A DNA stretch of 64,000 nucleotides from Ignavibacteriales bacterium (GCA_003568415.1 PWXV01000058.1:1952-65951); one strand, 5' to 3'. Positions 21,333-61,022 are shown, numbered from the stretch's first letter. Numbers and translations: made by a program. Notes: a model not told the origin generated them from the letters alone.

Positions 21333-21344
21333 AGGCATGCCGCC

Positions 21345-22415: not shown

Positions 22416-22429
22416 AAAAATAGGAATGT

Positions 22430-23884: not shown

Positions 23885-23908
23885 TAACAATCTAAATGAG
23901 CATATTGA

Positions 23909-24697
23909 ATGCCTTCAAAAATTCATGCAACCGCGATTGTAGACCCCGATACAAAACTCGGAAATAACGTAGAAATAGGGGCTTATTCAGTAATAGAAAA
24001 CGATGTGATCATCGGTGATGATTGCGTTATCGGTCATCAGGTGGTGATCGCATCGGGCACACGGCTCGGGAACGGTGTTCGTGTTTTTTCGGGAGCTGTT
24101 ATCGGTAATCCTCCCCAGGATTTGAAGTATAAAGGTGAACCCACTATTGTTGAGATTGGGGATATGACGGTAATTCGTGAGTGTGCGACCGTTAACCGCG
24201 GAACCAAAGAAACCCAGAAAACGAAGGTGGGAAAGAATTGTTTGCTTATGGCGTATTCACACGTTGCACATGATTGCGTACTCGGTGATGGTGTAATACT
24301 CGCTAACTCGGTAAATCTTGCAGGGCATGTAACAATTCACGACCACGTTATCATTGGTGGGTTAACCGGTGTTCATCAGTTTGTAACTATCGGTACCGGC
24401 GCGATGATAGGAGCATTATTCAGGGTTAGTAAAGATGTGCCGCCGTTTATATTGGCAGGTGGTCAACCGTTGTCATATGAAGGATTAAATCTTATCGGTT
24501 TGCGGAGAAGAGGATTCAGCCCCAATACGATTCAGACCATTGCCGACACCTATCATGTACTATATCGATCGAAGATGAATGTTTCACAAGCACTTCAGAA
24601 ACTGTCTTCAATGGATGGGAAGATACCCGAGGTAGATACTATCATCGACTTTATACAGAAGAGTAAACGCGGAATCGTTCCTGCAAAAGTCCGTTGA
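23909..24697 (+). CDS. lpxA: acyl-ACP--UDP-N-acetylglucosamine O-acyltransferase
   Basis: IHATAIVDP...hexapeptide repeats, plus the LpxA C-terminal helical domain. Confidence 0.9.
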   Translation: MPSKIHATAIVDPDTKLGNNVEIGAYSVIENDVIIGDDCVIGHQVVIASGTRLGNGVRVFSGAVIGNPPQDLKYKGEPTIVEIGDMTVIRECATVNRGTKETQKTKVGKNCLLMAYSHVAHDCVLGDGVILANSVNLAGHVTIHDHVIIGGLTGVHQFVTIGTGAMIGALFRVSKDVPPFILAGGQPLSYEGLNLIGLRRRGFSPNTIQTIADTYHVLYRSKMNVSQALQKLSSMDGKIPEVDTIIDFIQKSKRGIVPAKVR

Positions 24698-32143: not shown

Positions 32144-32158
32144 AAGACCTCATATAGA

Positions 32159-32204
32159 GTCCCCCCTCGCCAAGGGGGGACACCGTATTGTAATTGTATT
32201 TTTT
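32159..32204 (+). terminator. intrinsic terminator after pfkA
   Basis: GTCCCCCC-TCGCCAA-GGGGGGAC, an 8-bp GC stem, followed downstream by a T-rich run (TATTTTTTGGG). Confidence 0.6.
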
Positions 32205-32346
32205 GGGCAGCCCCATTTCAATTTTATCACACCTATTTATGTAGTATAGACTCTTAGACCAGACTTGCTTCTCCCCTCCACCTTTTCTATATTATATGTG
32301 ATGTGAAAAACCGTGCTTTGTTAACTATTTTGAATAAAATGTGGGG

Positions 32347-33057
32347 ATGTTGATCTACATGCAGAGATTGTTTGGAGGGAAGACTTTCCGGCCTTTACTA
32401 ATCATATTGATTTTCATGTTTGCTGGAATACCGGATCTGTTTGCCGGTGAAGCGGAGGAATCCGCATTTCGCATCGGCAGGTTGGAATACCGGGGGGGCG
32501 GTGATTGGTATGTCGGACCGAGTGCCGAACCCAATTTACTTGAGTATATCCGTGAACATACCAATGTACCGGTAAAACCGGCTTATGAGCCTGTGGATAT
32601 AATGAGTGATAAGCTCTTTAGCTACTCGATGATATTTTTAACCGGTCACGGCAATATTTCTTTCAATGAGCAGGAACGGCAGCGCCTGCGTGAATATTTC
32701 CGGCGTGGTGGCTTTCTTTATGCAGACGATTGTTATGGTATGGATGCTGCCTTCCGCCGCGAGATGGGAAAGCTGTTTCCCGATCAGGAATTGGTTGAAC
32801 TACCGTTCTCGCACCCGATCTATACTATAAAATACGATTTTTCAAACGGACCGCCAAAGATTCATGAGCATGACGGAAAACCTCCACAGGGATTCGGACT
32901 TTTTAAAGACGGACGACTTGTTGTATATTATACGTACGAAGCCGATCCGCATGACGGATGGGTTGATGAGCGAGTTCACGGGAATCCATGGGATGTTCGG
33001 GAAATGGCATTGCAATTCGGAACGAACATTGTCCTCTGGCTGTTGACAAAATCATAA
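32347..33057 (+). CDS. DUF4159-like protein (predicted class-I glutamine amidotransferase-like fold) with N-terminal signal/TM
   Basis: About 235 aa, starting with a hydrophobic segment and containing IFLTGHGNISFNEQERQRLREYFRRGGFLYADDC. I assign it to DUF4159 from memory of that family and its genomic partners; I did not search. The start could be 32341, 32347 or 32359. Confidence 0.55.
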   Translation: MLIYMQRLFGGKTFRPLLIILIFMFAGIPDLFAGEAEESAFRIGRLEYRGGGDWYVGPSAEPNLLEYIREHTNVPVKPAYEPVDIMSDKLFSYSMIFLTGHGNISFNEQERQRLREYFRRGGFLYADDCYGMDAAFRREMGKLFPDQELVELPFSHPIYTIKYDFSNGPPKIHEHDGKPPQGFGLFKDGRLVVYYTYEADPHDGWVDERVHGNPWDVREMALQFGTNIVLWLLTKS

Positions 33058-33073
33058 GAGGAATAAGGATAGT

Positions 33074-36000
33074 ATGTCGCCGCATCGTGTTTCTGAAATA
33101 GAAAAAACCATATCGAAAAAGCTCCATGCACTGCGTAAGAAAGATGAACGCCTAAATCTATTATCCGGTGCATTGTTGGTGGCCGGGGCTTTCATCGCAT
33201 CATTCGGTTTACTCAGTATTCTCGAAGGGCTTTTTTATTTTCCGGCTGCTGTTCGAACCGGTTTGGTTTTCGGTGCAGCAATAATTGTGGCGATACTCGG
33301 CATTATCTTTTTGGTAAAACCTCTTCTTGTTTCGGTTGGAGTACTGAAACGTAAAAATGATCTCGACCTTGCCCATATCGCCGGGAAACATTTCCCGGCC
33401 ATAAAAGACCGGTTATATAATCTGCTTCAACTCGCTGAAGACAGAAAGAGCGGAACACTTCGATATTCCGCCGAACTCATTGACGCATCCTATAGTGATC
33501 TTGCAGACGAAGTAGAGAAAAACGATTTCAATCAGTCGATTACCTTTACTAAACCGATACAGATTGGTCGAAGCGTACTCTACGGATGTATATTTCTGGG
33601 TATATTGTTTCTCATATCTCCTCAATATTTTGGCGATGCTGTTTATCGTGTTGCTCACTTCGGTGAGGAGTTTGAGACACCACAGGCGTTTGCACTCTCA
33701 ATCGAACCGGGTGATATTGAAACAGTCAGAGGTGACAGCGTAACAATTCGGGTTCATGTTGAAGGCGATCCCCAACCGGAAATATCTCTCTATACACGAC
33801 AGGAAGGTCAGGTAGACTTTGAGAAGTTTGTAATCGATGACCCATCCGGTGCTGCATTTACCTATCCAATAAATCAGATACGACGGACAACGGAATACTA
33901 CGCAGCCCGGAAAGATCAAAAAACACCGCAGCATAAAATTACAGTACATGACCGCCCGACGGTAAGGAATTTAAATGTCACTTTAAATTATCCCTCGTAT
34001 ACGGCATTACCGGCCCGTACTCTTGATGATGATACCGGCAATATAACAGCTATTCGCGGTACCCGTGCGACGGTAGAGATTTTATCGAACAAAGAACTTG
34101 CCGAAGCAACGATAGTGTTTCGTGAATATGATGATGTCGAAATGGATGTTGAGGGAAATAAAGCGCGTGCACAGTTCACAGTCAATAACGACGACCGCTA
34201 TCATATTGACCTGCAGGACACCGGTGAGATCCGGAGCGCTGATCCTGTAGAATACCAGATTCGCATGGTAGAGGATGAATATCCCCTGATTACAATCGTT
34301 GAACCGGGGCGCGATAAGAACATTGATGAAAATCTCCGGGTGCCGATGATGTTCCGGATACAGGACGATTATGGTTTTACCAGACTTCAGCTTGGTTATA
34401 AACTGGATGAATCGCGCTATGAGCCGGCACATGAAGAATATACCTATATCGATATTCCGATCTCCTCCGGTGCATCGAATGATGAAATCGTTGAATATCT
34501 ATGGAATGTACGTGATCATATGAGTCTCGCCCCTGAAGATGTGGTCAGTTATTATGCTGTCGTGTATGATAACGATACGGTCAGCGGTCCAAAGCGGGGG
34601 GAAAGTGAAACCTATGTATTCAGATTGCCGTCACTCGATGAGGTGTTTGCAGAGATGGACAGGCAGCAATCGGAATCACGTGAAGATCTTGAATACTCTG
34701 CTGAAGAAGCTGAACTACTTAAACGTGAACTTGACGATATACGTAAAGAATTACAGCTTGCACAGCATGAAATGAACTGGGAACGCGAGCAACGGATGAA
34801 AGATATGCTCGACCGGTATGAGGAACTGCAGCAAAACCTCGAACAGATGGGGCAGGATCTCGATGAGATGATCGACGATATGCAGCGGCATGATGTTTTG
34901 TCACCTGAAACCCTCGAAAAATATCTCGAACTGCAGGAGTTATATCAACAGCTCAGCGATCCTGAATTCAAGAAAGCGATGGAAAAACTGCGTGAAGCGA
35001 TGGATAAAATGGATCCAAATCAATTGCGTGAAGCAATGCAGGATATGACCTTTAATGAAGAGCAGTTCAGACAATCGCTTGACCGCACACTAAATCTGTT
35101 AAAGAGAGTGCAGATTGAACAAAAAGTTGATGAATTATTAAAACGTGCTGAACAAATGGTCGAAGAGCAGCACGCTGTTGAAGATGAACTTGATGCAATG
35201 GATGAGGCCGATACAGAAGCAACGCAGCAACTTGATCAGCAACTTGATGATTTGAAGCAGCAGCTTGAGCGGATGAAAGAAGAACTTGCAGATCTGCAAG
35301 ACCGGATGGAAGAATTTCCGACAGAGATGCCCCTTGATGATCTGCAAAAAACAATGGATGATATGGATGCCGCCGGTATGGAGCAAAAGATTGACCAAAT
35401 GAAACAGCAGATGCAGCAAGGGGAAATGCAGGACGCCAAACAGCAGCACGGTCAAATCCGGCAGGACCTCAATCAGATGCAGGATAATCTCGCACGAATG
35501 CAGCAATCGTTGCTTGAGGATCAGATGCGTCAGATAGTGAATGAGATGCGGCGTGCATTGCGAAATATTAACGATCTTTCAAAACGGCAGGAACGGTTGC
35601 GTGATGAAACCCGCTCGCTCGAACCCAATTCTCAGTTGTTCCGCGATAATGCGCGAAAACAAAGCGAGGTGAGGTCAGATCTCAGCAGCGTTGTCGACGA
35701 TCTGGTATCCTTGTCACAAAAAACGTTCGCGATTACCCCGGAAATGGGTCGTGCTATCGGTCGTTCATTTCAACAGATGGAAGAAGCTCTTGACCGTCTT
35801 AATGCCAGAAGCGGTAATCAGGCATCACGGCAGCAGGAAGGGGCAATGGCTTCATTAAATGATGCATCGTTGTTATTGCAGCAATCGTTACAGGCGATGA
35901 TGGAGGGGGGCGGTCAGGGAGGCATGCAGGGTTTTATGCAGCAACTTCAGAATATGGCCGGTCAACAGCAGCAAATTAATTTAGAAACGGGAGAACTCGG

Positions 36001-36472
36001 TGACGGTCAGATGACGATGGAGCAACAGGCACAGATGGCGCGGTTAGCGGGAGAGCAGGAAGCGGTTCGCCGGTCGCTTGAAGAACTTCAACATGAAATG
36101 GAGGGTAGAGGCGCCCGCGAAAGAATCCTCGGTGATCTCGACCGGATCGAAGAGGATATGCGTGAGGTGGTGAGCGGTTTGTCTGCTGATGAACTGCAGC
36201 CTGAAACTATACGACGGCAGGAACGAATTCTCAGCCGTTTACTCGATGCCCAGCGCTCTATACGTGAACGCGATTATGAAGAGAGACGTGAAGGTGAAAT
36301 TGCCGATCAGATTCTAAGAGATAGTCCACCCGAAATCGATTTAACAACACAGGAGGGCCGTGACAGATTACGTGAGGATATGCTTCGCGCAGTACGCGAG
36401 GGATATTCACGCGACTATGAACAATTGATACGACGATATTTTGAATTATTGCAGGACATTGAACAAGAGTAA
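33074..36472 (+). CDS. 1132-aa membrane protein: 2 N-terminal TM helices, beta-rich domain, ~550-aa Q/E/M-rich coiled-coil (DUF4175-like?)
   Basis: Good RBS (AGAGGAA). Two TM helices at aa ~30-85. A long heptad-like region (…MQQGEMQDAKQQHGQIRQDLNQMQDNLARMQQSL…) and a Gly/Gln stretch (GGGQGGMQGFMQQLQNMAGQQQQ). Confidence 0.65.
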   Translation: MSPHRVSEIEKTISKKLHALRKKDERLNLLSGALLVAGAFIASFGLLSILEGLFYFPAAVRTGLVFGAAIIVAILGIIFLVKPLLVSVGVLKRKNDLDLAHIAGKHFPAIKDRLYNLLQLAEDRKSGTLRYSAELIDASYSDLADEVEKNDFNQSITFTKPIQIGRSVLYGCIFLGILFLISPQYFGDAVYRVAHFGEEFETPQAFALSIEPGDIETVRGDSVTIRVHVEGDPQPEISLYTRQEGQVDFEKFVIDDPSGAAFTYPINQIRRTTEYYAARKDQKTPQHKITVHDRPTVRNLNVTLNYPSYTALPARTLDDDTGNITAIRGTRATVEILSNKELAEATIVFREYDDVEMDVEGNKARAQFTVNNDDRYHIDLQDTGEIRSADPVEYQIRMVEDEYPLITIVEPGRDKNIDENLRVPMMFRIQDDYGFTRLQLGYKLDESRYEPAHEEYTYIDIPISSGASNDEIVEYLWNVRDHMSLAPEDVVSYYAVVYDNDTVSGPKRGESETYVFRLPSLDEVFAEMDRQQSESREDLEYSAEEAELLKRELDDIRKELQLAQHEMNWEREQRMKDMLDRYEELQQNLEQMGQDLDEMIDDMQRHDVLSPETLEKYLELQELYQQLSDPEFKKAMEKLREAMDKMDPNQLREAMQDMTFNEEQFRQSLDRTLNLLKRVQIEQKVDELLKRAEQMVEEQHAVEDELDAMDEADTEATQQLDQQLDDLKQQLERMKEELADLQDRMEEFPTEMPLDDLQKTMDDMDAAGMEQKIDQMKQQMQQGEMQDAKQQHGQIRQDLNQMQDNLARMQQSLLEDQMRQIVNEMRRALRNINDLSKRQERLRDETRSLEPNSQLFRDNARKQSEVRSDLSSVVDDLVSLSQKTFAITPEMGRAIGRSFQQMEEALDRLNARSGNQASRQQEGAMASLNDASLLLQQSLQAMMEGGGQGGMQGFMQQLQNMAGQQQQINLETGELGDGQMTMEQQAQMARLAGEQEAVRRSLEELQHEMEGRGARERILGDLDRIEEDMREVVSGLSADELQPETIRRQERILSRLLDAQRSIRERDYEERREGEIADQILRDSPPEIDLTTQEGRDRLREDMLRAVREGYSRDYEQLIRRYFELLQDIEQE

Positions 36473-36489
36473 TATAACTAATAAAGTAC

Positions 36490-38646
36490 ATGCCTGATCT
36501 GTCACTTGCATTACAAACGAGTCCGGTATTATTCGGTCTTCTTGCGTTGATTATTGCAGCGGTATCATATTTTATATACCGTGTAACCGTTCCGCCTATT
36601 CCCGGTGGCTTAAAGACTGTATTAATATTTTTACGCACCGCCGGTCTTATCGCAGTTTTAATGATATTTTTCGAACCGGTGCTCACCGTTGTTACCCGTT
36701 CCGAAACTCCCCCGCGTGTTGCATTAATGGTTGATAATTCAAAGAGTATGCGCCTGGTCGACGGTGCCGGTGACCGTGCCGGAATCCTTGACCGTGTGCT
36801 CAATAATGAAGTATTCAACAGTCTGGATAGACAAAACAAACTAACCACTATATCGTTTGCCGGTGATGCCGGTATGCTTGAAACTTTTTCACCCGATAGT
36901 TTTCAACTCGACGGTTCTGCAACAAATATCGATGCCGCATTGAAAAAATTACGTGAAGTGCGTGAACGCGAGAATATCAAACTCGGGGTTCTGATCTCCG
37001 ATGGTAATTATAATGTCGGTCCCCGTCCTGTGTATGAAGCAGAACGTCTCAACATACCGCTGTTTACTGTGGGAATTGGTGATTCACTTGAACAAAAAGA
37101 TATATTGATTTCACGGGTCATAGCAAATGAGATCGCGTACCTCGATACCGAAGCACCGGTTGATGTTCGGGTGCGCAGTTCAGGATTCGGCGGCGAGCGA
37201 GTTGCGGTTACCCTCTCGGACGACGACACAGTCATTGAAGAAAAGACCATTACACTCGAAGACGGTACCGCCGATTACGAGCTATCGTTTTCATTCCAAC
37301 CCGAAGAAGAAGGCGTGCAGAGATACACGGTAAGTGTACAGGAGATGCCCGGTGAAGTTACCCATGAAAATAACCATCAATCGTTTTATGTTACTGTGCT
37401 CGACCGTAAAGTTCAGGTATACCTGCTTGCCGGCGCACCAACGCAGGATCTCACCTTTCTACGGCGAACGCTATATAACGACGAAACAATTGATGTGACT
37501 ATGTCGGTGTTGGGAGCGGGTGGTGCCGTTATCGGCGGGGAGCCGACCGAGTCCCGCCTGCGTGAAGCAGATCTGATTGTTCTTGTAGGATTTCCGACAG
37601 AGGAAACACCATCATCATTAATTAATGATGTTCAAGCAATAATTGAAGACGAAAACAAACCGGTATTGTTTCTCGAAAATATAACAGCCGATGTGCAGCG
37701 AATTGATGATTTGCTTCCGGTTGCGATTGAGCAGACTCGTCGAGAGGAACATCAAACATTTGTTAACGTTCCGGAAGCACAAGCGGGGCATTCATTATTC
37801 CGCATAGGAGAAGAACGGAAAACCGTCCGGTGGGAAGCATTACCTCCGGTATTCAGGACGATGCATCGCTATGCAGTGCGTCCCGGCTCGGAAACAGTAA
37901 TGACTCATCGCTTACAAAACACACCGCTCGACGATCCGTTTCTTGTAATACGCTCGGTCGGGGGCAGAAGATCGGCAACCATACTTGGATATGGGATATG
38001 GCGCTGGAGAATGATGGGACGCGGAGATGTTGACGGTGTTGCAGTATATGATAATCTGATGTATAATCTCGTGCAATGGTTGACCACCGATGAAGATCAG
38101 GATCGTGTACGCATCACCGCATCCAAAGAACAGTATCATACAGGCGAAGCAATAGAATTTACAGGGCAGGTATACGATGAACAATACCGGCCGCTCGCAA
38201 ATGCCGAAGTCCGGGTAACCGTGCACTCCGATGATGAAACATTCGAAACAGTATTATCACCCCGTGGTCATGGAAGATATGAAGGATCATTAAATCCATT
38301 GCCAGAGGGAGATTATGAATATGTCGGCTTTGCGGAGTTTGAGGGTGCGGATGTCGGCGAAGACGATGGTCGATTTATGGTGGGAGAGCTAAATCTGGAA
38401 TTTCGCGATACAAGAATGCATATACAAATAATGAGACAGTTGGCTGCGATTACCGGTGGAGATTTCATACATTCCGGTGAACCGGAAAAACTTGAGGAAA
38501 AATTGCGTGAAATCGATACGTATGAAGCGAGAATCGAGACTGCCTCGGTGGATTATCAAGTCTGGAATTTACCCGCTGCTCTTGCGGTTTTGATATTATT
38601 CTTCAGTATTGAGTGGTTTCTCCGGAAAAGAAATGGTATGTTATAA
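36490..38646 (+). CDS. BatA_N (aerotolerance-regulator N-terminal) + von Willebrand factor A domain membrane protein
   Basis: N-terminal LFGLLALIIAAVSYFIYR plus a second TM. vWA with MIDAS DNSKS...S...T...D (VALMVDNSKSMRL...GVLISDGNYN). C-terminal TM (LAVLILFFSIEWFLRKR). Starts 17 nt after the upstream gene. Confidence 0.75.
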   Translation: MPDLSLALQTSPVLFGLLALIIAAVSYFIYRVTVPPIPGGLKTVLIFLRTAGLIAVLMIFFEPVLTVVTRSETPPRVALMVDNSKSMRLVDGAGDRAGILDRVLNNEVFNSLDRQNKLTTISFAGDAGMLETFSPDSFQLDGSATNIDAALKKLREVRERENIKLGVLISDGNYNVGPRPVYEAERLNIPLFTVGIGDSLEQKDILISRVIANEIAYLDTEAPVDVRVRSSGFGGERVAVTLSDDDTVIEEKTITLEDGTADYELSFSFQPEEEGVQRYTVSVQEMPGEVTHENNHQSFYVTVLDRKVQVYLLAGAPTQDLTFLRRTLYNDETIDVTMSVLGAGGAVIGGEPTESRLREADLIVLVGFPTEETPSSLINDVQAIIEDENKPVLFLENITADVQRIDDLLPVAIEQTRREEHQTFVNVPEAQAGHSLFRIGEERKTVRWEALPPVFRTMHRYAVRPGSETVMTHRLQNTPLDDPFLVIRSVGGRRSATILGYGIWRWRMMGRGDVDGVAVYDNLMYNLVQWLTTDEDQDRVRITASKEQYHTGEAIEFTGQVYDEQYRPLANAEVRVTVHSDDETFETVLSPRGHGRYEGSLNPLPEGDYEYVGFAEFEGADVGEDDGRFMVGELNLEFRDTRMHIQIMRQLAAITGGDFIHSGEPEKLEEKLREIDTYEARIETASVDYQVWNLPAALAVLILFFSIEWFLRKRNGML

Positions 38647-38728: not shown

Positions 38729-39754
38729 GTGAAAAAGATAATTAGTGTTGTATGCATTGTTTTATTGTTGCCTGCCTCCGCCGGCGCGGGTGGTTTTGGT
38801 GTGGGGAAATATGCCGGTGAATTTATGTCCATTGGTGTCGGAGGCCGTGCACTCGGTTTAGGCAGTGCTTATGTGGCTATTGCTAACGATGTCACTGCCG
38901 GTTATTGGAATCCTGCCGGACTTTCGCGAATTACCTATCCTGAAATAATCCTGATGCACGACGAACGTTTCGGCAATCTGATGAACTATGATTACGGAGC
39001 GGTTGCCCTACCGTACGGGTCTGATGCCAGTATTGGTATTAGTGTCATGCGACTCGGTATCGATGGAATTCCGGATACCCGGGATGCATTGGTCGACTAT
39101 ACCGGCGGCGGGATCCTTGATGCTGCTGCACGCCTTGATTACGATCGAATAACTGAACATAGCTGGGCCGACTGGGTTCTATACCTTACCTACAGTAAGC
39201 GACATAGTGATCGTCTCTCGTATGGATTTAATGTCAAGTTGGTGCGCCGTGATTTTATGGAATTCCATGCCACCGGTATCGGCTTTGATGTAGGCTTGTG
39301 GTATAACCCGACCGGCAATCTATTTCTCGGTCTGAATGCACAGGATATTACAACGACACTGGTGGCGTGGAATACCGGAACGAACGATCTTATTTCACCG
39401 ACGTTAAAGGTAGGCAGCGGTTATATGTTTGATGTACCCGGTGGTCGATTGATACCGCTTATAGATCTGGATTTTCGATTTGAGAACCGTCAATTTGCCT
39501 CGAACATGAGTCTCGGTCCGGTGAGTGTGGACTTTCACGGTGGGCTTGAATACAGTGTTCGCAATCTATTTGCTCTCCGTGCCGGGTATAATGATATCGG
39601 TAACCTTACTTTTGGTGCAGGGATTCATTTACCGAAACTTGATCTCGATTATTCATTCGCACAATTCGATGGCACCGGTCAACTTGGTAATACGCATCGC
39701 ATCTCATTGCGCATTACCTTATCCGAAGACCGCTTTGCCAGAAAAACTGATTAA
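38729..39754 (+). CDS. FadL/PorV/PorQ-superfamily outer-membrane beta-barrel protein
   Basis: Signal peptide followed by a GxxAxGxGxAxxAxxxDxxAxxxNPAGL signature (GGRALGLGSAYVAIANDVTAGYWNPAGL), then alternating beta-strand pattern. ~340 aa, which is a PorQ-like size. GTG start at 38729 (the track's TTG is at 38723). Confidence 0.55.
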   Translation: MKKIISVVCIVLLLPASAGAGGFGVGKYAGEFMSIGVGGRALGLGSAYVAIANDVTAGYWNPAGLSRITYPEIILMHDERFGNLMNYDYGAVALPYGSDASIGISVMRLGIDGIPDTRDALVDYTGGGILDAAARLDYDRITEHSWADWVLYLTYSKRHSDRLSYGFNVKLVRRDFMEFHATGIGFDVGLWYNPTGNLFLGLNAQDITTTLVAWNTGTNDLISPTLKVGSGYMFDVPGGRLIPLIDLDFRFENRQFASNMSLGPVSVDFHGGLEYSVRNLFALRAGYNDIGNLTFGAGIHLPKLDLDYSFAQFDGTGQLGNTHRISLRITLSEDRFARKTD

Positions 39755-39774: not shown

Positions 39775-40452
39775 ATGAAAACACCCGTAGCATATAGCCT
39801 CACCATTTCGTTATTAGTAATACTATTCATATCCGGTTGCAGTGAAGACCCCAAAGAACAGGCCATTCGTGAAAAACTCGAAACACCGATCTTTTCCTCA
39901 TTGACCGAAGAGCAGGAGTATGTTGACAGCTTACAAGGCGTGCGCCATTTTAAGGATGAGTGGATGCTGGAGAGCCGTGACTCACCGCTGAAAGAAGAGG
40001 ACCGGGAGAGGTTTTCCGGACTCAATTATTTCCCGGTTGACTTACAGTATGTGTTTAGAACCCGGCTGCATAAATATGAAGATCCGGAGATAATCACCAT
40101 TGGAACTACCACCGGCGATGACCGTGAAGCAATTCGCTATGGATATATAGAATTTACGATATATGAGGATACATATCGTTTACATGCATATAAGTTTACC
40201 GCGCACCAGGGAACGGATCTGGATCAGTATATTTTTATACCATTCAAAGATGCAACCTCGGGATCGCAAACGTACAGCGGCGGCAGATATATGGATGTTC
40301 AGGAAGAAATTCCCGGGGTGGTAGTAGTTGATTTTAATGATGCATATAACCCCTATTGTGTATACAATGAGGCCTATAGTTGCCCGATCCCTCCGCGGGA
40401 GAATCATATCGATATAGCAATAGAGGCAGGTGAGAAAGATTTTAAGTTGTAA
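39775..40452 (+). CDS. DUF1684-like lipoprotein
   Basis: Lipobox (LFISGCSE) and a C-terminal YNPYCVYNEAYSCPIPP motif, which resembles the DUF1684 CPxPP signature. Confidence 0.55.
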   Translation: MKTPVAYSLTISLLVILFISGCSEDPKEQAIREKLETPIFSSLTEEQEYVDSLQGVRHFKDEWMLESRDSPLKEEDRERFSGLNYFPVDLQYVFRTRLHKYEDPEIITIGTTTGDDREAIRYGYIEFTIYEDTYRLHAYKFTAHQGTDLDQYIFIPFKDATSGSQTYSGGRYMDVQEEIPGVVVVDFNDAYNPYCVYNEAYSCPIPPRENHIDIAIEAGEKDFKL

Positions 40453-42660
40453 TCACTTGGATTCCATCACTGTGTAACCATCCCAGTCAGCGGGTGGCGG
40501 ATTCTCGAGAAATGCTTGTGAACGTTCAAGATAGATCTTGCCGGGAATATCGTGGGGATATTTCTGTGTTAATTCGTTAAAATATTCTATTGCTTCTTTC
40601 CACTGGCGGTTACGATACAATCTGATTCCCTCATTGTATAATTCAGTAATTTTGTGGTCATCATCAGAAATGCTGTCGTCCCGCATGCCGATTAATTCAT
40701 AAATGGTAGTGCCTTCTGTTTTTCCCTTGACGACGATAGTATCCAACTCGCGCACGACAACGGATTCCTGAACATACTGATAGGTGTTCTGGCTGATTAT
40801 GATATTTGTTCCGTAATATTTATTCGCCGCTTCCAGACGTGCTGCAAGATTCACGCTGTCACCGATTACCGTATAATCGAATCGTTCTTTGCCGCCCATA
40901 TTTCCCACAATCATATCGCCGGTATTGATCCCGATCCTGACGTGCATTTTTAAATGTTTTTTTCTTGCGGTGTGATCTTCCCGTAATTTATTCAATGTTT
41001 TCTGCATTTGAATCGCAGAAAAGCAGGCAAGATATGGATGGTCGGGGAGTGAAATCGGAGCGCCCCAGAATGCCATTATAGCATCACCTTCATATTTATC
41101 AAGTGTTCCTTTGTTCTTAATAATTATATCGGTCATTGCATCGAGATACTCATTCAAAAGTTCCACGAGTTTTTCGGGTGGAAGACCTTCTGAGATAGAC
41201 GTAAATCCCGCTATATCGCTGAAGAGCACCGTCAATTCCTTTTTCTCACCACCGAGCCGAAGTTTATCCGTGTCGCTGAGCAGTTCATTCACGATTGCCG
41301 GACTCACATAATGACTGAAAATAGATTTGACGATTTCCTTTTGTCGACGCTCGGTTAAATATTGATGAATTGCAGATCCGAAATAGCCGAGAATAAGGGC
41401 TGCAACCGGTCCGATAACGGGTGTGATTACTTGCTGATTTATAAAGTACCAATTACCGAGGTAGAATACTAAATAAATTGCTCCCGCGGTTATGAGAATT
41501 GCAGCAAATTCCAGTATATATTGATGACGGAATTTAACTGCTTTAATAACCGAAATAAGCATAAATAGTATAAATGCAGTGGCTATGACAATGAGTGCAC
41601 CTGACGTTTCAGACGTCGGTTTAAGATAGTTATCATCGATCATTGCCTGTATCATATTGGCGTGAATTTCAACACCATACATCTCGTTAAAATCGGGAGT
41701 TCCCTCGGGATGGACAGGAGTAGAGTGAAGGTCCTGTGATTCGGGAAACACAGGGCCTATGAGCACGACCTTGTCTTTAAACGGATTGGTCTCAACGAAG
41801 TCGTAAAATATATCAAGGTCTACACCGTACCGGAGTTCGTCAAGGGTTGTAAATGTTTCATCGTCAATGACATCGATAAGGTCAAACTTGGTAAACGTAC
41901 CCGAAGGTCCGTAGTAATTAATATGCGTTGTTTCGGCGGTGCGGGGTATGATTCGTTTCCCGAGTATGAATGCATGCTCGCGTATCTGAGGCTGGGTGAG
42001 TGCATCACGTCCGTCATAGCGATTTAAGACTGCTGTACCGAACGACGGCATCATACGTGCACCGCCATGAGTAAACATTGAAACCGGATACCGACGAATC
42101 ACACCATCGGGATCTTTACGCATCTGCACGAAACCCAGTGAGCTGTCCGCTTCAAAGAATATATTACCGAACATATCACCTTCTTGAACGATAACTGCTT
42201 CAACTTCCCCGCGGCGTTCGATACCGCGGATCACACCTGCAAGCACAACATTGCCCGCATCTTTTATTTCATCGAAGAGTAATGCATCCTGCTGTGGGTC
42301 ATGGTAAGATGGAGTATCAAATATAAGGTCGATGCCGATAACTTTAGCGCCAAGTCTGTCGAGATTACGGATTGCACGTGCATAATAATCCCGGGGAAAG
42401 GGATATGGATCGGGAGCAAGTTCGAAACTTTCACGGGAGATGCCGACGATGACAACGTCGAGATCCGTCCCGTCACGTGCAAGCGGTCCGCGTTGATCGA
42501 ACCGGTAGTCAATACTTGCAAGATGGAGTTTATGAAATAATCCAAAATGATAGAATGTATCCTGAACAAAGGTGGTTACCAGGATGCCGATGCATAAACC
42601 GATGATAAGTCTTTGAATCCAATCTTTACTGCCGGTGATTTTTAATTTCTTTTCTATCAT
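40453..42660 (-). CDS. CHASE2 sensor domain-containing class III adenylate/guanylate cyclase
   Basis: N-terminal TM, a periplasmic CHASE2-like region, four TM helices, then a cyclase catalytic core (LTVLFSDIAGFTSISE...KYEGDAIMAFWGAP...GINTGDMIVGNMG) and a C-terminal TPR-like tail. Confidence 0.85.
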   Translation of the reverse strand: MIEKKLKITGSKDWIQRLIIGLCIGILVTTFVQDTFYHFGLFHKLHLASIDYRFDQRGPLARDGTDLDVVIVGISRESFELAPDPYPFPRDYYARAIRNLDRLGAKVIGIDLIFDTPSYHDPQQDALLFDEIKDAGNVVLAGVIRGIERRGEVEAVIVQEGDMFGNIFFEADSSLGFVQMRKDPDGVIRRYPVSMFTHGGARMMPSFGTAVLNRYDGRDALTQPQIREHAFILGKRIIPRTAETTHINYYGPSGTFTKFDLIDVIDDETFTTLDELRYGVDLDIFYDFVETNPFKDKVVLIGPVFPESQDLHSTPVHPEGTPDFNEMYGVEIHANMIQAMIDDNYLKPTSETSGALIVIATAFILFMLISVIKAVKFRHQYILEFAAILITAGAIYLVFYLGNWYFINQQVITPVIGPVAALILGYFGSAIHQYLTERRQKEIVKSIFSHYVSPAIVNELLSDTDKLRLGGEKKELTVLFSDIAGFTSISEGLPPEKLVELLNEYLDAMTDIIIKNKGTLDKYEGDAIMAFWGAPISLPDHPYLACFSAIQMQKTLNKLREDHTARKKHLKMHVRIGINTGDMIVGNMGGKERFDYTVIGDSVNLAARLEAANKYYGTNIIISQNTYQYVQESVVVRELDTIVVKGKTEGTTIYELIGMRDDSISDDDHKITELYNEGIRLYRNRQWKEAIEYFNELTQKYPHDIPGKIYLERSQAFLENPPPADWDGYTVMESK

Positions 42661-45074
42661 ATATCATAACGAAGCATAAGTTGCGATACCATATCATTCC
42701 GGGCATCCGGATTCAGGAGGTAATCTGCCTGAAACACGACCGAGAGGTTTCGCATAAAATAATACTGTGCTCCGGCTTGGAAGATCGTCCGGTTATAATC
42801 GCCGAATGTCGGAATAAACGATGCATTGATTCTAAGATCGTCTTCGAGAAACCGGTATTCACCGCCGAGGATAATGTTATAGTAATCAAAATTGGTTTGA
42901 ACAAATTGTCCCTGACCGTTGTCTTCTTCAGGAGCTTGAAAGAAAGGAATTTTACTGTGATACATACCGAGACCGATTGTTGTTCGGAGCGGCAGGTCGT
43001 CAAAACGGCTGTTCACCATAGCAATTACATTATAGATATCAACGTCTGCGTCACGGTCTGTTTGATCATCACGAAGTGACATATTAAATGAAATTGAACC
43101 GTTGTGATGTGCCCGCCAGAAAAAGTTATGGGATAATTGAGTGAAAAACCGGTTTGTGACATCGCGTATCGCCATCGGTTCCATCAGTGCGACATTATTA
43201 TCATTTTTATAATATCCATATCCTACAGAAATAGACGGAAAATCGCGTCGCGGATAATATGAAACAGAAGCATCATATCTGTTAAAATGAGTTGTATGGG
43301 CCTTCGTATCGTGCAGGTTGTCACGTAAACTTTCCACAGAGACGTCAAAGTATAATTGATTTTCCATTACCCTGAGCCGATCGCGTACTCGTATACCGGC
43401 CACATCGCGTCTGAGGGCAGCCAATCCGAATGAATTATAATCGTTCCCCCGTCTTATGTATCCGATTTGTAAATTGTTCCCGAAATAATTTAACCGCAAA
43501 TTAAGATCCATGGCAAGGGATGATAGTTGTGTTGGATCGAATGGAACGAGGTATTGATTGACGGTGATAAAACTCTGTAACGTTGACAATGAGATAACAT
43601 CCTCAAGCTGTTCCACAGCGCCGCCACCCATCAACTCATCCAGCTCTTCGCGTGTAAGATTGCCCCGTGATATATCGGTGTTTTGCATGCTTCCTGCAAT
43701 TTCACCGACGAACTGTATTCTTCGGCGGTCAAGTGATACTCGCAAGTCGCTGCCGACAACCAGATTTTCAGCAGGCCGTCTGCCGAACTCCACCGAACCT
43801 ACATCGTCTTGTGAATGAAGATAGGTAAAACCTATTTGAACAAAATCACGGCTGCCAAAACTTGGTCTGATTGCTGTTAATGTCCGTGTATGAGTTCCAA
43901 ATCTAAATACTGCATAGGTAGAATCATCGACGAGGATGCTGTTGGAGGGAGGTTGAATTGCAAAACCGTCCTCATCAAATGCTGCTATACGATCCAGCTC
44001 ATTTCCTTCAACGCCGCGTATTGTCTGTCCTGTTGCATATTCAAGATTAAACCACCCCAGTTCAAGTTCGCCGAAGAAACCGCGAAGACGTCGTCCGTTC
44101 ATAATTAAAGATGGAAAACGCGGATAAGTATCACCGGCGTGAAGTCGAAGCCAGGGCATTTCGGCTGAGAATGAATACCGGTTCTGTGGCTGCCTGAAAC
44201 TGCGTTCTTCATTTGTTACATGAAGATTCGAGCGAAAACGTACCCAGGGTAACCGTCCGTCGAAGGTAACCGTACTGCGATTATACCATGTCGATGCACC
44301 TCCGAACGATTCGTTGCGGGATTCACCTCGCATTGAAACATCATAGCGAAAATCCTGGGTAACGGGATCGATTGTGGGTACACCGGTTAAATTAAACCTC
44401 CAGGAAAATGAGTGAACTTCACCGGTATTTCTTTCTTGCAATGCTAACCGGATTGTTTGTTGGCCGCCCGGTAATTCGAGTCCATCGATATTTGCAGGAA
44501 CGGCGATGAGTATATCACCGGAGATTATTGTATGGCCTGTTATATCCTTGTCACTGATGAAGACCTGTGTTTCGTCTTTAGTATATTTGTCAGGAAGTTC
44601 GAAAAGTGATACCGAAACAACGAGATCCTGAAACTCGACGGTTTCATTTTCCTGGGGACTGAGGATTATAATTTCATCCCGTAACCGTGTTACCGATGTA
44701 ACCGGTGCCATTTCGGGATGATACTCAGGATCGGTTACCGGATAGGTATGTTCTGAACCATCATTGGAAATAAGTTTAATGTAATATTCAATGTGAGGAG
44801 GTGACACATTCTCTTCGGGTATAACGGCAGTAGCCGAATTTCCGGCGACGGTCATCTCAATCGGGGTATACTCGGATGAACCGAATTGCCGGTACATTAA
44901 AAATATTTCCTGAATTCCTCCAGCGCGTATTAGGTCAACGCGAATTTCAAGTGAGGTTTCTTCAGTTGCTTCCTGATGGTGAACGGATAGAAAATAATCG
45001 GATGGCTGCGCACTACTATACAATGAAGCAGACACCGAGATAACAATGATAAAAAATGCGCGGGGGATTCGCAT
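42657..45074 (-). CDS. 805-aa predicted outer-membrane protein (signal peptide + N-terminal domains + beta-rich C-terminal region)
   Basis: Strong RBS (GAGGAGG). Signal peptide MRIPRAFFIIVISVSASLYSSAQ. Aromatic-rich alternating pattern throughout the C-terminal 550 aa. Overlaps the cyclase start by 4 nt. Confidence 0.55.
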   Translation of the reverse strand: MRIPRAFFIIVISVSASLYSSAQPSDYFLSVHHQEATEETSLEIRVDLIRAGGIQEIFLMYRQFGSSEYTPIEMTVAGNSATAVIPEENVSPPHIEYYIKLISNDGSEHTYPVTDPEYHPEMAPVTSVTRLRDEIIILSPQENETVEFQDLVVSVSLFELPDKYTKDETQVFISDKDITGHTIISGDILIAVPANIDGLELPGGQQTIRLALQERNTGEVHSFSWRFNLTGVPTIDPVTQDFRYDVSMRGESRNESFGGASTWYNRSTVTFDGRLPWVRFRSNLHVTNEERSFRQPQNRYSFSAEMPWLRLHAGDTYPRFPSLIMNGRRLRGFFGELELGWFNLEYATGQTIRGVEGNELDRIAAFDEDGFAIQPPSNSILVDDSTYAVFRFGTHTRTLTAIRPSFGSRDFVQIGFTYLHSQDDVGSVEFGRRPAENLVVGSDLRVSLDRRRIQFVGEIAGSMQNTDISRGNLTREELDELMGGGAVEQLEDVISLSTLQSFITVNQYLVPFDPTQLSSLAMDLNLRLNYFGNNLQIGYIRRGNDYNSFGLAALRRDVAGIRVRDRLRVMENQLYFDVSVESLRDNLHDTKAHTTHFNRYDASVSYYPRRDFPSISVGYGYYKNDNNVALMEPMAIRDVTNRFFTQLSHNFFWRAHHNGSISFNMSLRDDQTDRDADVDIYNVIAMVNSRFDDLPLRTTIGLGMYHSKIPFFQAPEEDNGQGQFVQTNFDYYNIILGGEYRFLEDDLRINASFIPTFGDYNRTIFQAGAQYYFMRNLSVVFQADYLLNPDARNDMVSQLMLRYDI

Positions 45075-45122
45075 TACCTCCTCGGTTAGTACTGATGAAT
45101 AATAAGTTATAGAGAATTTACA

Positions 45123-45872
45123 TTATTGATCTGTTTTATCTTCTTCGTATTCAATGATTAATGTTCGTGGATTTCCATCCTCATCCATAGTACGAATCTC
45201 GATAGTTCTCTGCTGCCGTTCACCAGGTGTATCGTCTAACTCATCGCCCGGTTCTCCGTATTCTTCGAGATCATCATCGGTAAGCTCACGTTTTTCTAAG
45301 TTCCCGTCGGAGAATGAAAATGCAATTTCACCGCCATATACTTCAATCTCTTCGCCCGTGATCCTATTGAGAAACATAGCGAGCCCGGTTACCATCAACA
45401 GTACGTCCGCTTGGCCCGGTCTAACGATTAGTATCCCGGTCGAACCGCGAATCGATGCGACCGAAGTAGGCGTTGAGAATTCAAACCGGTCGGCTTCTTT
45501 TTTCCTGACATCGAAACTAACCGAACCCTCATCTACTTCAATATCACGATGATAGTTATCGCGGTCCCGGTCTGCATAGACAGTAACCTCTGATAATTCA
45601 CGAACACGAAGTAAACTGTTATCGTAAAATCTGATTAATGAAAACGATCCTGCTCCTGTTTTGACGATATCGCCTGAATTAAGCAGGTCACCGATCTTTG
45701 CCGTTTGCCAATCAATCTCGGGTGATCGGCGCTCCACTATTTCAACAACCCGGTTAACCAGGGCAATCGTTGGCCGCTCATCGTTATTTTCATTCTCGCC
45801 GGCTCCTACAATATCCCCCGGAAGAGCCAGCCAAAAAGCCAAAAGAACTGTTGTCAGTAATATAGTACGCAT
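45123..45872 (-). CDS. FecR-domain protein (secreted)
   Basis: FecR-like beta-sandwich motif GDIVKTGAGSFSLIRFYDNSLLRVRELSEV. ATG at 45872 gives the signal peptide MRTILLTTVLLAFWLALPG; the track's TTG start is at 45905. Confidence 0.7.
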   Translation of the reverse strand: MRTILLTTVLLAFWLALPGDIVGAGENENNDERPTIALVNRVVEIVERRSPEIDWQTAKIGDLLNSGDIVKTGAGSFSLIRFYDNSLLRVRELSEVTVYADRDRDNYHRDIEVDEGSVSFDVRKKEADRFEFSTPTSVASIRGSTGILIVRPGQADVLLMVTGLAMFLNRITGEEIEVYGGEIAFSFSDGNLEKRELTDDDLEEYGEPGDELDDTPGERQQRTIEIRTMDEDGNPRTLIIEYEEDKTDQ

Positions 45873-45908
45873 AATATAAATCCCCTGTGTTAGATTTCCA
45901 TCCAATTA

Positions 45909-47087
45909 TTATTCCTGAAATGAAACATTCAAAATTTCCGGATTGTTGACGCCGGCACGAATTGCATTGATAACCATCTGGAGTTCCTCGCCTGTGATTT
46001 GTGAACCATCGAGGAATATTTGTTCAATGTCTTCGTAATTCCCCCGCTCGATTTCTTCGACAATATGTGGGTGTCGTTCTTCAAGTAATTGCCGGAGTTC
46101 GATCCACAAAACATTTCGTGCACTTTCGTGTGCCGGATCCACCACCGTGAAGGTATGCAGATCGCTTAGAATCCCTTCTTCTCTGTTTGCGCTGGTTTTA
46201 TACAATCCTTCGAGATACCATACATATTGCATGCCGGGTTCCAGTGCTCTGACGCCTGCTCCGGTTTGTGGATAGGTCAGTTGATTGTTATTGGAAACTC
46301 TCTGTTCGAGGTGCGGAATTCCTGTTATTGCTTCCTCAGGAGAGCGAACACCGGGACGTTTCTCAAATACACGCAGTACAACTTCACGGGTATCCGAGCG
46401 CCATTGGAAATGCGGAAACTGTGAAACGATTCGGGCACCATCCATAGGTGTTAATAACTCAACCCGTGTTGGATTTATAATATGGAGCTCTCTTGATATT
46501 TGATCAAGCATTGTTCTCGGTTGATATGGCTCGGTATCACGTTCAGTATAATAGGCAGTCAGTGTGAAGGTGTAAATACCATCGGGAACCCGTGACGTAG
46601 CCCGGATTGCATCAACGATATCCTGTGCATGGCCCGAATTTCCGGAGATATCGATAGTCTCGGATCTATACAGTTCAAGCCGGCCGCCCTGACCGAGATC
46701 GCGGCTGGTGAAAAACCGTGGTTGATTTGCTTCAAGACTGATCGGTTTTGTTAATCCCGAAAAGAGTTCAACCTCACCCTGCGCAACCTCGGTATCTGCA
46801 GTCAGGTCAATGCCGAACATAATGTTTGCAGGTTGATCCGATGTGATATTCATAGAAAAAAATATCGGGCTCTGTGGTGATAGTACCAGATTTTGGAGGT
46901 TAAATGCAACATCGCCAATATAAAATACATCCACATCAATAACCTGTGCACTAAATGTGATGTTTACATTGGGATGTGGTTGTGCTTGTACCTGTTGATG
47001 AGAACCACCTGCCAACAGTATGCCTAGCAGGCACAACGCTATGGTTCCCCTGATAAAAGAATTAAACATCGAATTACGCAGCCGCAT
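45909..47087 (-). CDS. hypothetical secreted protein
   Basis: ATG at 47087 preceded by AAAGGGGG. Signal peptide MRLRNSMFNSFIRGTIALCLLGILLAGG. No recognised domain. Ends 3 nt before the FecR-domain gene. Confidence 0.5.
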   Translation of the reverse strand: MRLRNSMFNSFIRGTIALCLLGILLAGGSHQQVQAQPHPNVNITFSAQVIDVDVFYIGDVAFNLQNLVLSPQSPIFFSMNITSDQPANIMFGIDLTADTEVAQGEVELFSGLTKPISLEANQPRFFTSRDLGQGGRLELYRSETIDISGNSGHAQDIVDAIRATSRVPDGIYTFTLTAYYTERDTEPYQPRTMLDQISRELHIINPTRVELLTPMDGARIVSQFPHFQWRSDTREVVLRVFEKRPGVRSPEEAITGIPHLEQRVSNNNQLTYPQTGAGVRALEPGMQYVWYLEGLYKTSANREEGILSDLHTFTVVDPAHESARNVLWIELRQLLEERHPHIVEEIERGNYEDIEQIFLDGSQITGEELQMVINAIRAGVNNPEILNVSFQE

Positions 47088-47217
47088 AATTGCCCCCTTT
47101 TTCAATTAAAATAATGGTCATACTAATTTTTGACCTTGCTTTAGTAGTTTCATACTACTATATAGTTATATGAAATCACCTTTATCTGCCGTGTTTTAGA
47201 GCACAGTGTGATGGTTG

Positions 47218-48534: not shown

Positions 48535-48538
48535 AAAA

Positions 48539-61013: not shown

Positions 61014-61022
61014 AGTAATTTT

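Follow-up and report, generated by a model that had tools for sequence, protein, structure and literature searches.

A DUF4159-DUF4175-VWA gene trio of an Ignavibacteriales bacterium as the probable extracytoplasmic part of a MoxR-associated envelope system

Introduction

The Bat operon of Bacteroides, which has homologues in Leptospira, Borrelia, Francisella and Riemerella, runs moxR-DUF58-batA-batB-batC-batD-batE. The nearest studied relative of the locus considered here is presumably a different cluster, RL3499-RL3502 of Rhizobium leguminosarum, because we take its two membrane proteins to carry BatA_N plus DUF4159 and DUF4175/TIGR02302, respectively. This assumes that the alphaproteobacterial family TIGR02302 is equivalent to DUF4175. 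The cluster is reported to encode a MoxR protein, a DUF58 protein and the two membrane proteins, and mutants in it are reported to be defective in cell morphology and membrane integrity (Vanderlinde et al. 2011, J Bacteriol 193:2684). CenR, a regulator of division and the envelope, targets a TIGR02302-family gene (PMC9275681), and AdvA, an essential division protein of Acinetobacter baumannii, has a DUF4175 match beside two transmembrane (TM) helices (PMC7481262). Here we analyze three genes, P1, P2 and P3, in a 64-kb stretch of DNA from an Ignavibacteriales bacterium (the window). All coordinates count from its first nucleotide and refer to the plus strand.

Results

P1 (32359-33057), P2 (33074-36472) and P3 (36490-38646) are co-oriented and separated by gaps of 16 and 17 nt, in the places where the original prediction had put them. 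Each is a genuine gene and has full-length homologues at 20-90% identity. The longest open reading frame of P1 spans 32341-33057; among its possible starts (GTG 32341, ATG 32347 and ATG 32359), both ATGs are likelier, and gene callers chose 32359.

Profile searches confirm pfkA on the upstream side of the trio, as first proposed, together with surE; on the other side they confirm a PorV/PorQ-family outer-membrane barrel gene (38729-39754) that begins 76-82 nt after P3. The barrel scores 122.3 bits against NCBIfam NF033709 (cut-off 90), and the equivalog models PorV2, PorQ and PorV all score below their own cut-offs. It follows P3 in all complete loci of the window's own clade, defined as loci whose P2 is at least 62% identical; within that clade it is followed in turn by a DUF1684 gene (39775-40452; Pfam PF07920, 157.6 bits). 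PADLOC anti-phage defence models matched none of the five proteins screened. A clean terminator had also been described in front of the trio. There is indeed a G+C-rich hairpin 3' of the pfkA stop codon (32152-32188), with a 9-bp core stem at 32159-32181 that folds at -23 kcal/mol (z -1.8). It went uncalled in a terminator scan because its T-run lies about 19 nt downstream, leaving it a possible terminator between pfkA and the trio.

P1 belongs to the DUF4159 family, as proposed: it matches Pfam PF13709 over profile positions 1-202 of 202 with 204.3 bits (cut-off 25.9). At its N-terminus, a hydrophobic segment precedes an acidic start of the mature protein, and residues 1-29 (32359-32445) form a predicted signal peptide, suggesting that P1 is secreted. 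The protein falls in the GATase1-like clan and matches PDB 4i66 at E 4e-5. The nucleophilic cysteine of class I glutamine amidotransferases is not conserved in P1 or its DUF4159 homologues, most of which have aspartate in place of the sole candidate cysteine of P1. The motifs GGFL..DD, GHGN and DGW are invariant or almost so among homologues.

P2, a predicted inner-membrane protein of the expected 1132 residues, matches Pfam DUF4175 (PF13779) with 117.6 bits (cut-off 27.3), residues 268-851 aligning to profile positions 164-628 of 825. The alphaproteobacterial DUF4175-type equivalog, NCBIfam TIGR02302, found no match in P2 at E<=0.01; the DUF4175-like proteins of loci L088 and L090 are unmatched by it as well. 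At E<=1e-30, relatives of P2 fill 1,959 clusters (50% identity), and among the best 150 of these nearly all are about 1100-1250 residues long and align almost end to end. Neither P1 nor P2 belongs to a well-characterized family, and the large protein is without characterized function, as the original prediction held.

The architecture of P2 departs from what was first proposed. Instead of two N-terminal TM helices, hydropathy reveals three hydrophobic segments (residues 32-50, 63-81 and 164-182). These make up a predicted membrane region (33167-33619), assigned from hydropathy, positive-inside counts and helices in an AlphaFold2 model of mean pLDDT 83.3. The region comprises TM1 (33167-33223), TM2 (33260-33316) and TM3 (33563-33619). 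Between TM2 and TM3 lies a mini-domain (33317-33562), predicted to be cytoplasmic, whose conserved motif AIKDRLYNLLQL is among the three best-conserved 12-mers of the family. The predicted periplasmic part opens with a beta-rich region (33689-34624), modeled as tandem Ig/FN3-like sandwiches, in which the motifs DDYGF and DND.VSGPK are invariant; a Foldseek search of this region against the PDB returned nothing beyond generic Ig/FN3/MG arrays. It continues with a helical region (34634-36466) rich in Glu, Gln, Leu and Met, with a net charge of -58. Rather than the single coiled coil of about 550 residues once envisaged, the C-terminal 610 residues are modeled as some 18 helices of 13-63 residues, the longest being 61-63.

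P3 (718 residues) resembles BatA and BatB in topology, with two N-terminal TM helices and a third near its C-terminus (36520-36576, 36616-36672 and 38554-38610, from hydropathy and the model). Its Pfam scores for VWA (20.9), VWA_2 (20.0) and CarboxypepD_reg fall under threshold. The AlphaFold2 model (mean pLDDT 85.5) nevertheless confirms, as a predicted structure, a VWA fold with a complete MIDAS. The N-terminal part of this fold (36679-37095) carries D82-x-S84-x-S86, T145 and D171; an alignment of 63 homologues shows no variation at D82, S84, S86 or D171 and almost none at T145. Residues 634-688 (38389-38553) probably complete the fold. The original prediction was thus right about the VWA domain, its MIDAS and the C-terminal TM helix. 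For its BatA_N domain the topology is alike, but PF07584 and TIGR02226 gave no match in P3 at E<=0.01, and it overlooked a 440-residue insert of three domains (37096-38388). The insert comprises a CARDB-like Ig domain (37096-37401), a GATase1-like alpha/beta domain nested in the VWA protein (37402-38094) and a second Ig-like domain (38101-38388). The central domain was assigned by its profile or fold match to GATase1_like (PF07090) or the class I glutamine amidotransferase-like fold.

For both P2 and P3, hydropathy together with the positive-inside rule predicts large domains that lie outside the cytoplasm. In P3, the last TM helix (residues 689-707) is followed by RKR, which supports a predicted periplasmic position of the VWA domain. 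BB0173, a BatA-like protein that also has three TM helices, was found by experiment to have a periplasmic VWA domain (PMC5700661). Only two short parts of P3 are predicted to be cytoplasmic, a loop between the first two helices (YRVTVPPIPGGLK, 36577-36615) and the C-terminal tail EWFLRKRNGML (38611-38643). The tail is the best-conserved segment of P3, with a conservation of 0.80 compared with 0.59 for the loop and 0.49 overall. Together, tail and loop may be where a cytoplasmic partner makes contact. The tail is fully intact in the window, and both elements are at the family consensus in the clade.

The reported lack of MoxR and DUF58 in the window is borne out by our searches. A tblastn search using four MoxR and two DUF58 sequences as queries reached a best E of only 0.006, and window ORFs of suitable size have other Pfam assignments. 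On its upstream side the trio is flanked by 32 kb of the window, and on its downstream side by 25 kb, so a canonical moxR-DUF58 pair beyond those edges would not be adjacent to it. MoxR was not found within 8-10 kb of the trio in six clade relatives, nor were MoxR or DUF58 found in the flanks of L002, L006, L007, L091, L092 and L171. Among the trio and its neighbors, Pfam gave no match for TPR proteins (BatC/BatE) or BatD.

The picture differs outside the clade, where MoxR lies directly upstream of P3 homologues in 47 of 59 informative loci (80%); L020, L028 and L086 show this order too. A MoxR-independent complex, one of the options first raised, is therefore unlikely. The 78 metagenome P3 loci divide into 26 with MoxR next to P3, 21 with an S8 peptidase between them, 12 without MoxR, 11 in which S8 precedes P3 and the contig ends before the MoxR position, and 8 that are uninformative; many of the compared loci come from related MAGs, and such counts are not independent events. 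The intervening S8 peptidase carries a Por_Secre_tail in at least 21 loci, and in 30 of 36 loci surA is the gene immediately before moxR, defining a module surA-moxR-(S8 peptidase)-P3. None of the 47 moxR-P3 loci, which represent an Ignavibacteria-type module, contains a DUF58 gene. In this the module differs from canonical MRP operons.

P1 and P2 belong to a different conserved unit. In 71 of 75 loci, DUF4159 is the gene just before DUF4175, and in 20 of 60 the pair follows ftsQ-ftsA-ftsZ, with ftsZ at most 3.5 kb upstream. Most such pairs lack a MoxR gene within 10 kb. Of 71 loci, only 5 place P3 directly behind DUF4175, and all 5 belong to the window's clade. The conserved core is therefore this pair and not, as had been supposed, the trio, which is conserved in that clade alone. 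Although the two modules are far apart in most lineages, they meet in several. Two metagenome contigs have them side by side: L132 reads surA-moxR-S8-P3-DUF4159-DUF4175 with overlaps or gaps of at most 10 nt, and L142 reads surA-moxR-P3-DUF4175. In L020 and L028 the modules lie within 5-8 kb of each other. L088 combines a P3-like gene, MoxR, DUF58, BatA and DUF4175 (62 bits). Plasmid 1 of Gemmatirosa kalamazoonensis (NZ_CP007129) carries P3-like, DUF4159-domain, MoxR, DUF58, BatA_N/VWA/GATase1-like and DUF4175-like genes; the DUF4159 domain is C-terminal (152.6 bits), the P3-like protein is 25% identical over 715 residues, and the DUF4175-like protein (1268 residues) scores 26 bits, slightly under the Pfam cut-off. 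The record is unannotated, and no published work on the cluster came to light. Together, L088 and the plasmid uphold the link to MoxR, DUF58 and Bat systems drawn in the original prediction.

Discussion

P3 is like the Bat operon in that its homologues follow an MRP-type MoxR and its predicted periplasmic orientation agrees with the experimental topology of BB0173. However, the window lacks MoxR, DUF58, a TPR protein and BatD, P3 combines its CARDB/GATase1-like/Ig insert with the lack of a BatA_N match, and its partners, DUF4159 and DUF4175, lie outside the described Bat operon. RL3499-RL3502 likewise encodes large membrane proteins, presumably of the same families, in association with MoxR, but it includes MoxR and DUF58, whereas the window trio has no linked ATPase. 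In addition, we assume that DUF4159 is fused to a membrane anchor in Rhizobium, while P1 would be a free secreted protein. The Gemmatirosa cluster contains all families of the trio but, again, MoxR and DUF58 as well. RavA-ViaA and other MoxR-VWA pairs recall the moxR-P3 module, since an AAA+ MoxR neighbors a VWA/MIDAS partner. Yet ViaA is cytoplasmic and membrane-peripheral; because P3 is predicted to hold its VWA domain in the periplasm, direct contact with the ATPase is unlikely. AdvA shares a DUF4175 match, and its division role echoes the ftsZ-adjacent pair, but it is far smaller and the match concerns its N-terminal membrane region. Orthology with P2 is unlikely.

Because P3 homologues accompany MoxR and the two modules are contiguous or joined elsewhere, the trio most likely supplies the periplasmic half of a system associated with MoxR. 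We put the probability at roughly 0.6 that it forms the extracytoplasmic part of an envelope system served by an MRP-type MoxR AAA+ ATPase acting in trans. The gene for that ATPase most likely lies elsewhere, and a trans-acting MoxR, which the original prediction also allowed, is a better reading than a MoxR-independent complex.

Alternatively, the clade may have lost or uncoupled MoxR, leaving the three proteins as an autonomous, passive envelope scaffold or adhesion-type assembly. The lack of MoxR and DUF58 in the 64 kb and in the relatives' flanks would fit, as would the 12 informative P3 loci without an upstream MoxR and the many DUF4159-DUF4175 pairs with none nearby. Absence from the flanks, however, is uninformative about the remainder of the genome, and the dominant MoxR-P3 arrangement and the consensus tail and loop of P3 both argue against uncoupling. 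We consider this alternative improbable.

Somewhat less probable still is a chance juxtaposition, in which a local rearrangement brought P3 beside the pair and nothing ties the two functionally; the partners of the pair would be the divisome, and those of P3 would be MoxR, SurA and the S8 peptidase. Their separation in most lineages and their distinct ftsQAZ (a third of loci) and surA-moxR settings are consistent with this, and in L171 the P2-P3 gap widens to 113 nt. It is only 17 nt in the window, though, and the modules are joined in at least five separate cases (the window's clade, L132, L142, L088 and the Gemmatirosa plasmid) and close in L020 and L028. We estimate the chance of two loci falling within 10 kb in a 3-4 Mb genome at well below 1%.

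The weakest candidate is a type IX secretion (T9SS) accessory handling, together with the adjacent barrel, cargo with a T9SS C-terminal domain: the PorV/PorQ-family gene following P3 across the clade and the Por_Secre_tail of the S8 peptidase suggest it, but in seven other loci 7-9 kb and unrelated genes separate the barrel from DUF4175, indicating retained synteny, 26 loci have MoxR and P3 without the peptidase, and DUF4159 and DUF4175-related families are reported in Alphaproteobacteria, which are not known to have a T9SS.

Returning to the MoxR-associated system, we propose that the window's lineage brought together two modules, the DUF4159-DUF4175 pair and P3 from surA-moxR-(S8 peptidase)-P3. 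P1 would be exported to the periplasm. P2 would be anchored by its three TM helices, with the conserved domain of 80 residues on the cytoplasmic side and the Ig-like domains and long acidic helical region reaching into the periplasm. The VWA/MIDAS domain of P3, with its nested GATase1-like domain, would face the same compartment, leaving the short loop and almost invariant tail in the cytoplasm. The MIDAS may bind an acidic residue of a periplasmic partner, whether P1, P2 or a client protein, and MoxR could engage the assembled proteins by way of their conserved cytoplasmic parts. This coupling step is speculative, as a periplasmic VWA domain is out of reach of a cytoplasmic ATPase.

We count the surA and ftsZ neighborhoods as envelope context for this proposal, and the complex would help to build or maintain the envelope, perhaps where the cell divides. 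On this reading, the trio represents an already known envelope system of unsolved mechanism in rearranged form, rather than a new stand-alone machine.

The DUF4159, DUF4175 and VWA genes form a compact locus

The three genes predicted to be tightly coupled are present and co-oriented. P1 (32341-33057) encodes a DUF4159 protein, P2 (33074-36472) a 1132-aa DUF4175 membrane protein and P3 (36490-38646) a 718-aa BatA/BatB-like VWA membrane protein, with gaps of 16 nt between P1 and P2 and 17 nt between P2 and P3. Because each has many full-length homologues, we regard all three as real genes. ATG codons at 32347 or 32359 are likelier starts for P1 than the GTG at 32341, and a gene caller applied to an identical contig chose 32359. 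The trio is flanked by surE and pfkA on its 5' side and by a PorV/PorQ-family barrel gene and a DUF1684 gene on its 3' side.

A clean terminator had been proposed ahead of the trio. The candidate, a 9-bp G+C hairpin 3' of pfkA (-23 kcal/mol), has its T-run about 19 nt away and was not called in a terminator scan of the window; it is at most a possible terminator. Overall, scans for sigma-70 promoters and terminators gave counts no higher than the shuffle level. A defense-system reading was rejected, as PADLOC returned no matches.

Several other features of the window were recorded. A cluster for outer-membrane biogenesis at 16929-24697, 8 kb 5' of the trio, has the order uppS-bamA-(two small genes)-lpxD-lpxC/fabZ fusion-lpxA, and rseP (M50 with PDZ) and dxr occupy 47218-49702. 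On the opposite strand near the trio, a block at 40453-47105 encodes a CHASE2-adenylate/guanylate cyclase with TPR, an 805-aa protein, a FecR-domain protein and a 398-aa protein; the 805-aa and 398-aa products have no Pfam match, and the block also adjoins the trio in two compared loci, L002 and L171. A 594-aa ORF at 60981-62765 is probably a T9SS cargo gene, judging by its C-terminus, which is 37% identical over 86 residues to the T9SS C-terminal sorting tail of an S8 peptidase from another locus (L086). Finally, 51548-57579 encodes two OpuAC-type glycine betaine binding proteins, an ABC ATPase with CBS domains and a permease. Both the OpuAC genes and the closest metagenome-assembled genomes (MAGs) are in keeping with a saline or soda-lake origin.

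DUF4159 and DUF4175 form the conserved unit

To place the trio in a wider context, we scanned species-representative genomes for DUF4175 and read gene order at 80 loci after ORF calling and clustering. Nearly all were MAGs labelled Ignavibacteria or Bacteroidota, the closest coming from soda-lake sediments. DUF4159 lies directly 5' of DUF4175 in 71 of the 75 loci with enough sequence. In three of the four exceptions an antisense shadow ORF occupies the DUF4159 position, and two of these also carry an inserted transporter gene. P3 directly follows DUF4175 in only 5 of 71 loci, all from close relatives, and the trio order recurs in L091 and L092 (70% identity) and in L171, where P2 is 62% identical. 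The original prediction of a conserved trio should therefore be replaced by a conserved pair plus a relocated MoxR partner. A Bacteroidales-type DUF4175 homologue (25% identity) lacks DUF4159.

Elsewhere, the genes 3' of DUF4175 vary: a peptidase-like gene, an ECF sigma/anti-sigma pair, Lon, AddAB-like genes and a TonB receptor are among them. In seven loci (L009, L036, L037, L046, L054, L059 and L066), a PorV/PorQ-family gene sits about 7-9 kb 3' of DUF4175; in those whose gene order was read, for example L036, L054 and L066, the intervening genes are peptidase-like, ECF sigma or anti-sigma, and Lon. Because the barrel lies further downstream in these seven loci, its position beside P3 in the window looks like retained synteny after P3 replaced the intervening genes.

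In 20 of 60 loci, ftsZ lies upstream of the pair, co-oriented with it and no more than 3.5 kb away, most often in the order ftsQ-ftsA-ftsZ-DUF4159-DUF4175. Among the Ignavibacteria-like species representatives, about one in three (L003:296-13441 and 19 others) has the pair at the 3' end of the division/cell-wall cluster. The pair of Ignavibacterium album comes after ftsZ (L032). MoxR occurs within 10 kb in only two of the DUF4175 loci.

P3 homologues are usually encoded beside MoxR, often with SurA

MRP-type MoxR proteins are AAA+ ATPases encoded in Bat operons beside DUF58 and BatA-like VWA genes. The original prediction held that the window contains neither MoxR nor DUF58, and this stands: tblastn with four MoxR and two DUF58 queries across the whole 64 kb found nothing (best E 0.006), and ORFs of suitable size are otherwise assigned. 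surA, GT2 and the S8 catalytic domain are likewise absent from the window.

MoxR does appear near P3 homologues, in three separate look-ups. A metagenome scan for P3 yielded 80 loci, two from the window's own clade and 78 encoding proteins 33-40% identical to P3. Among these 78, MoxR is directly upstream of P3 in 26, and in 21 an S8 peptidase with a T9SS tail intervenes; a further 11 have the S8 peptidase before P3 and reach the contig end before the MoxR position, 12 have no MoxR upstream and 8 are uninformative. In all, MoxR is upstream of P3 in 47 of 59 informative loci.

A gene for a SurA-like chaperone lies directly 5' of MoxR in 30 of 36 loci. This order, surA-like PPIase chaperone, MoxR, (S8 peptidase with T9SS C-terminal tail), P3, is kept at L132:1517-8096, L142:2284-6975 and 28 further loci (L095-L169). 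DUF58 is absent from all metagenome P3 loci examined, and we found no description of such a DUF58-less module.

A few loci join the P3 module to the pair. L132 has surA-moxR-S8-P3-DUF4159-DUF4175 with overlaps or gaps of at most 10 nt, L142 has surA-moxR-P3-DUF4175, and in L020 and L028 the two modules are separated by 5-8 kb. L088 encodes a distantly related P3-like protein (GATase1_like, E 8e-8) 5' of MoxR-DUF58-BatA-x-DUF4175 (62 bits). In Gemmatirosa kalamazoonensis, a cultured bacterium, plasmid 1 encodes in order a P3-like protein, a protein with a C-terminal DUF4159 domain (152.6 bits), a MoxR sharing 54.5% identity with one from Ignavibacteria, DUF58 (140.6 bits), a BatA_N/VWA_2/GATase1-like protein and a DUF4175-like protein (26 bits, slightly under the cut-off). 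Including the window's clade, we count at least five separate juxtapositions; because the compared loci are related MAGs, locus counts overstate the number of independent events.

A tblastn search of plasmids with P1 returned only two records, the Gemmatirosa cluster and an unrelated resistance-plasmid remnant. The latter, on Corynebacterium crudilactis plasmid pCRULAC1 (NZ_CP015623; L089:8968-9585), is a DUF4159 gene 47.7% identical to P1 that adjoins a dihydrofolate reductase gene in a multiresistance region, amid IS26, ISVsa3, sul2 and aph genes. The gene was apparently picked up as a passenger from a distant donor.

Most of the trio is predicted to lie in the periplasm

Profile searches confirmed the expected families, with P1 matching Pfam DUF4159 at 204 bits and P2 matching DUF4175 at 117.6 bits. 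P1 begins with a signal-like hydrophobic segment and is strongly conserved, most of its best 120 homologues being 57-68% identical. Its distant relatives include the structural-genomics protein 4i66 (E 4e-5), and Pfam, relying on structure, assigns DUF4159 to the class I glutaminase clan (PMC4702930). The motifs GGFL..DD, GHGN and DGW are wholly or almost invariant. The sole candidate nucleophile Cys of P1 is Asp in most homologues, making Cys-dependent amidotransferase activity unlikely, and we rejected a catalytic reading on this basis. The P1 matches listed, close stand-alone relatives, included no fused DUF4159 architectures. Sequence does not show that P1 shares ancestry with the GATase1-like domain found in P3; a profile-profile comparison of DUF4159 with P3 was not significant (probability 1.1%).

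P2 has three hydrophobic segments (residues 32-50, 63-81 and 164-182), one more than the two TM helices first proposed, and all three are helices in its AlphaFold2 model (mean pLDDT 83.3). Charge counts predict that the N-terminus and loop 82-163 are cytoplasmic and residues 183-1132 outside. Instead of a single coiled coil of ~550 residues, the model has a beta-rich stretch (206-517) followed by about 18 helices, each 13-63 residues long, between 521 and 1131. Foldseek against the PDB returned only generic Ig/FN3/MG arrays, and a PDB sequence search found no relative. Conservation is highest at DND.VSGPK and DDYGF, both within the beta region, at AIKDRLYNLLQL, part of the cytoplasmic domain, and at RQERILSRLL, close to the C-terminus. 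The family comprises 1,959 clusters at 50% identity (E≤1e-30); the best 150 are nearly all ~1100-1250 aa and align almost end to end.

Pfam matches to P3 were all sub-threshold, and PF07090 is present in distant homologues. In the AlphaFold2 model of P3 (mean pLDDT 85.5), two N-terminal TM helices lead into the VWA domain. A CARDB-like sandwich comes next, then an alpha/beta domain, another sandwich and a short alpha/beta piece before the C-terminal TM helix. As originally predicted, the MIDAS is intact: D82, S84, S86 and D171 are invariant among 63 homologues, and T145 is nearly so. The positive-inside rule predicts a periplasmic large domain, in agreement with the experimentally mapped topology of BatA-like BB0173 (PMC5700661). 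The best conserved segment is the predicted cytoplasmic tail, EWFLRKRNGML (0.80 vs 0.49 overall).

A probable MoxR-associated envelope system with a distant ATPase

We conclude that the trio is a lineage-specific union of the DUF4159-DUF4175 pair and the VWA partner of an MRP-type MoxR. Most likely, it makes up the periplasmic portion of an envelope system associated with MoxR, with the ATPase gene located elsewhere. The original observation stands with the corrections given above, and its interpretation has partial support; of the two possibilities first raised, we favor a trans-acting MoxR over a MoxR-independent complex. The ATPase might be coupled to the trio by way of P3's conserved cytoplasmic tail and loop, together with P2's cytoplasmic domain, and the P3 MIDAS may bind an acidic residue in either P1 or P2.

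The surA and ftsZ contexts, together with reports from other bacteria, suggest a role in the envelope or in division. We take the TIGR02302 family to be linked to DUF4175; the TIGR02302 model itself matched none of the proteins tested. Envelope and morphology phenotypes are reported for the Rhizobium leguminosarum MoxR operon RL3499-RL3502, in which RL3501 and RL3502 presumably share domain content with the trio (BatA_N plus DUF4159, and DUF4175/TIGR02302). A further line is a reported Azorhizobium TIGR02302 mutant. The CenR division/envelope regulon includes a TIGR02302-family gene (PMC9275681), and Riemerella Bat/MoxR mutants have stress phenotypes (PMC11834572).

A bolder proposal, to which we give roughly one chance in five, is that the trio and its distant MoxR form a trans-membrane-coupled machine that would join SurA in assembling outer-membrane or secreted proteins where the cell divides. 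The cytoplasmic AAA+ ATPase would grip the near-invariant tail and loop of P3 and the DUF4175 cytoplasmic mini-domain, thereby remodeling a scaffold that spans the periplasm and is built from Ig-like domains, the long acidic array of helices, VWA/MIDAS and DUF4159.

The trio is a variant of MoxR-type envelope systems already known. MRP-type MoxR operons, Bat included, are widespread and affect stress tolerance, envelope integrity and virulence. Repeated gene linkage now assigns two large DUF families to the MoxR system and defines a DUF58-less surA-moxR-(S8)-P3 module in Ignavibacteria-like bacteria. The short conserved cytoplasmic elements are likely coupling points. Together, these results supply targets for predicting the structures of complexes and for genetic work in relatives that have been cultured, for instance Ignavibacterium album or Gemmatirosa. 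If the coupled machine exists, this clade would be a natural experiment in which the ATPase and the periplasmic module are genetically separable.
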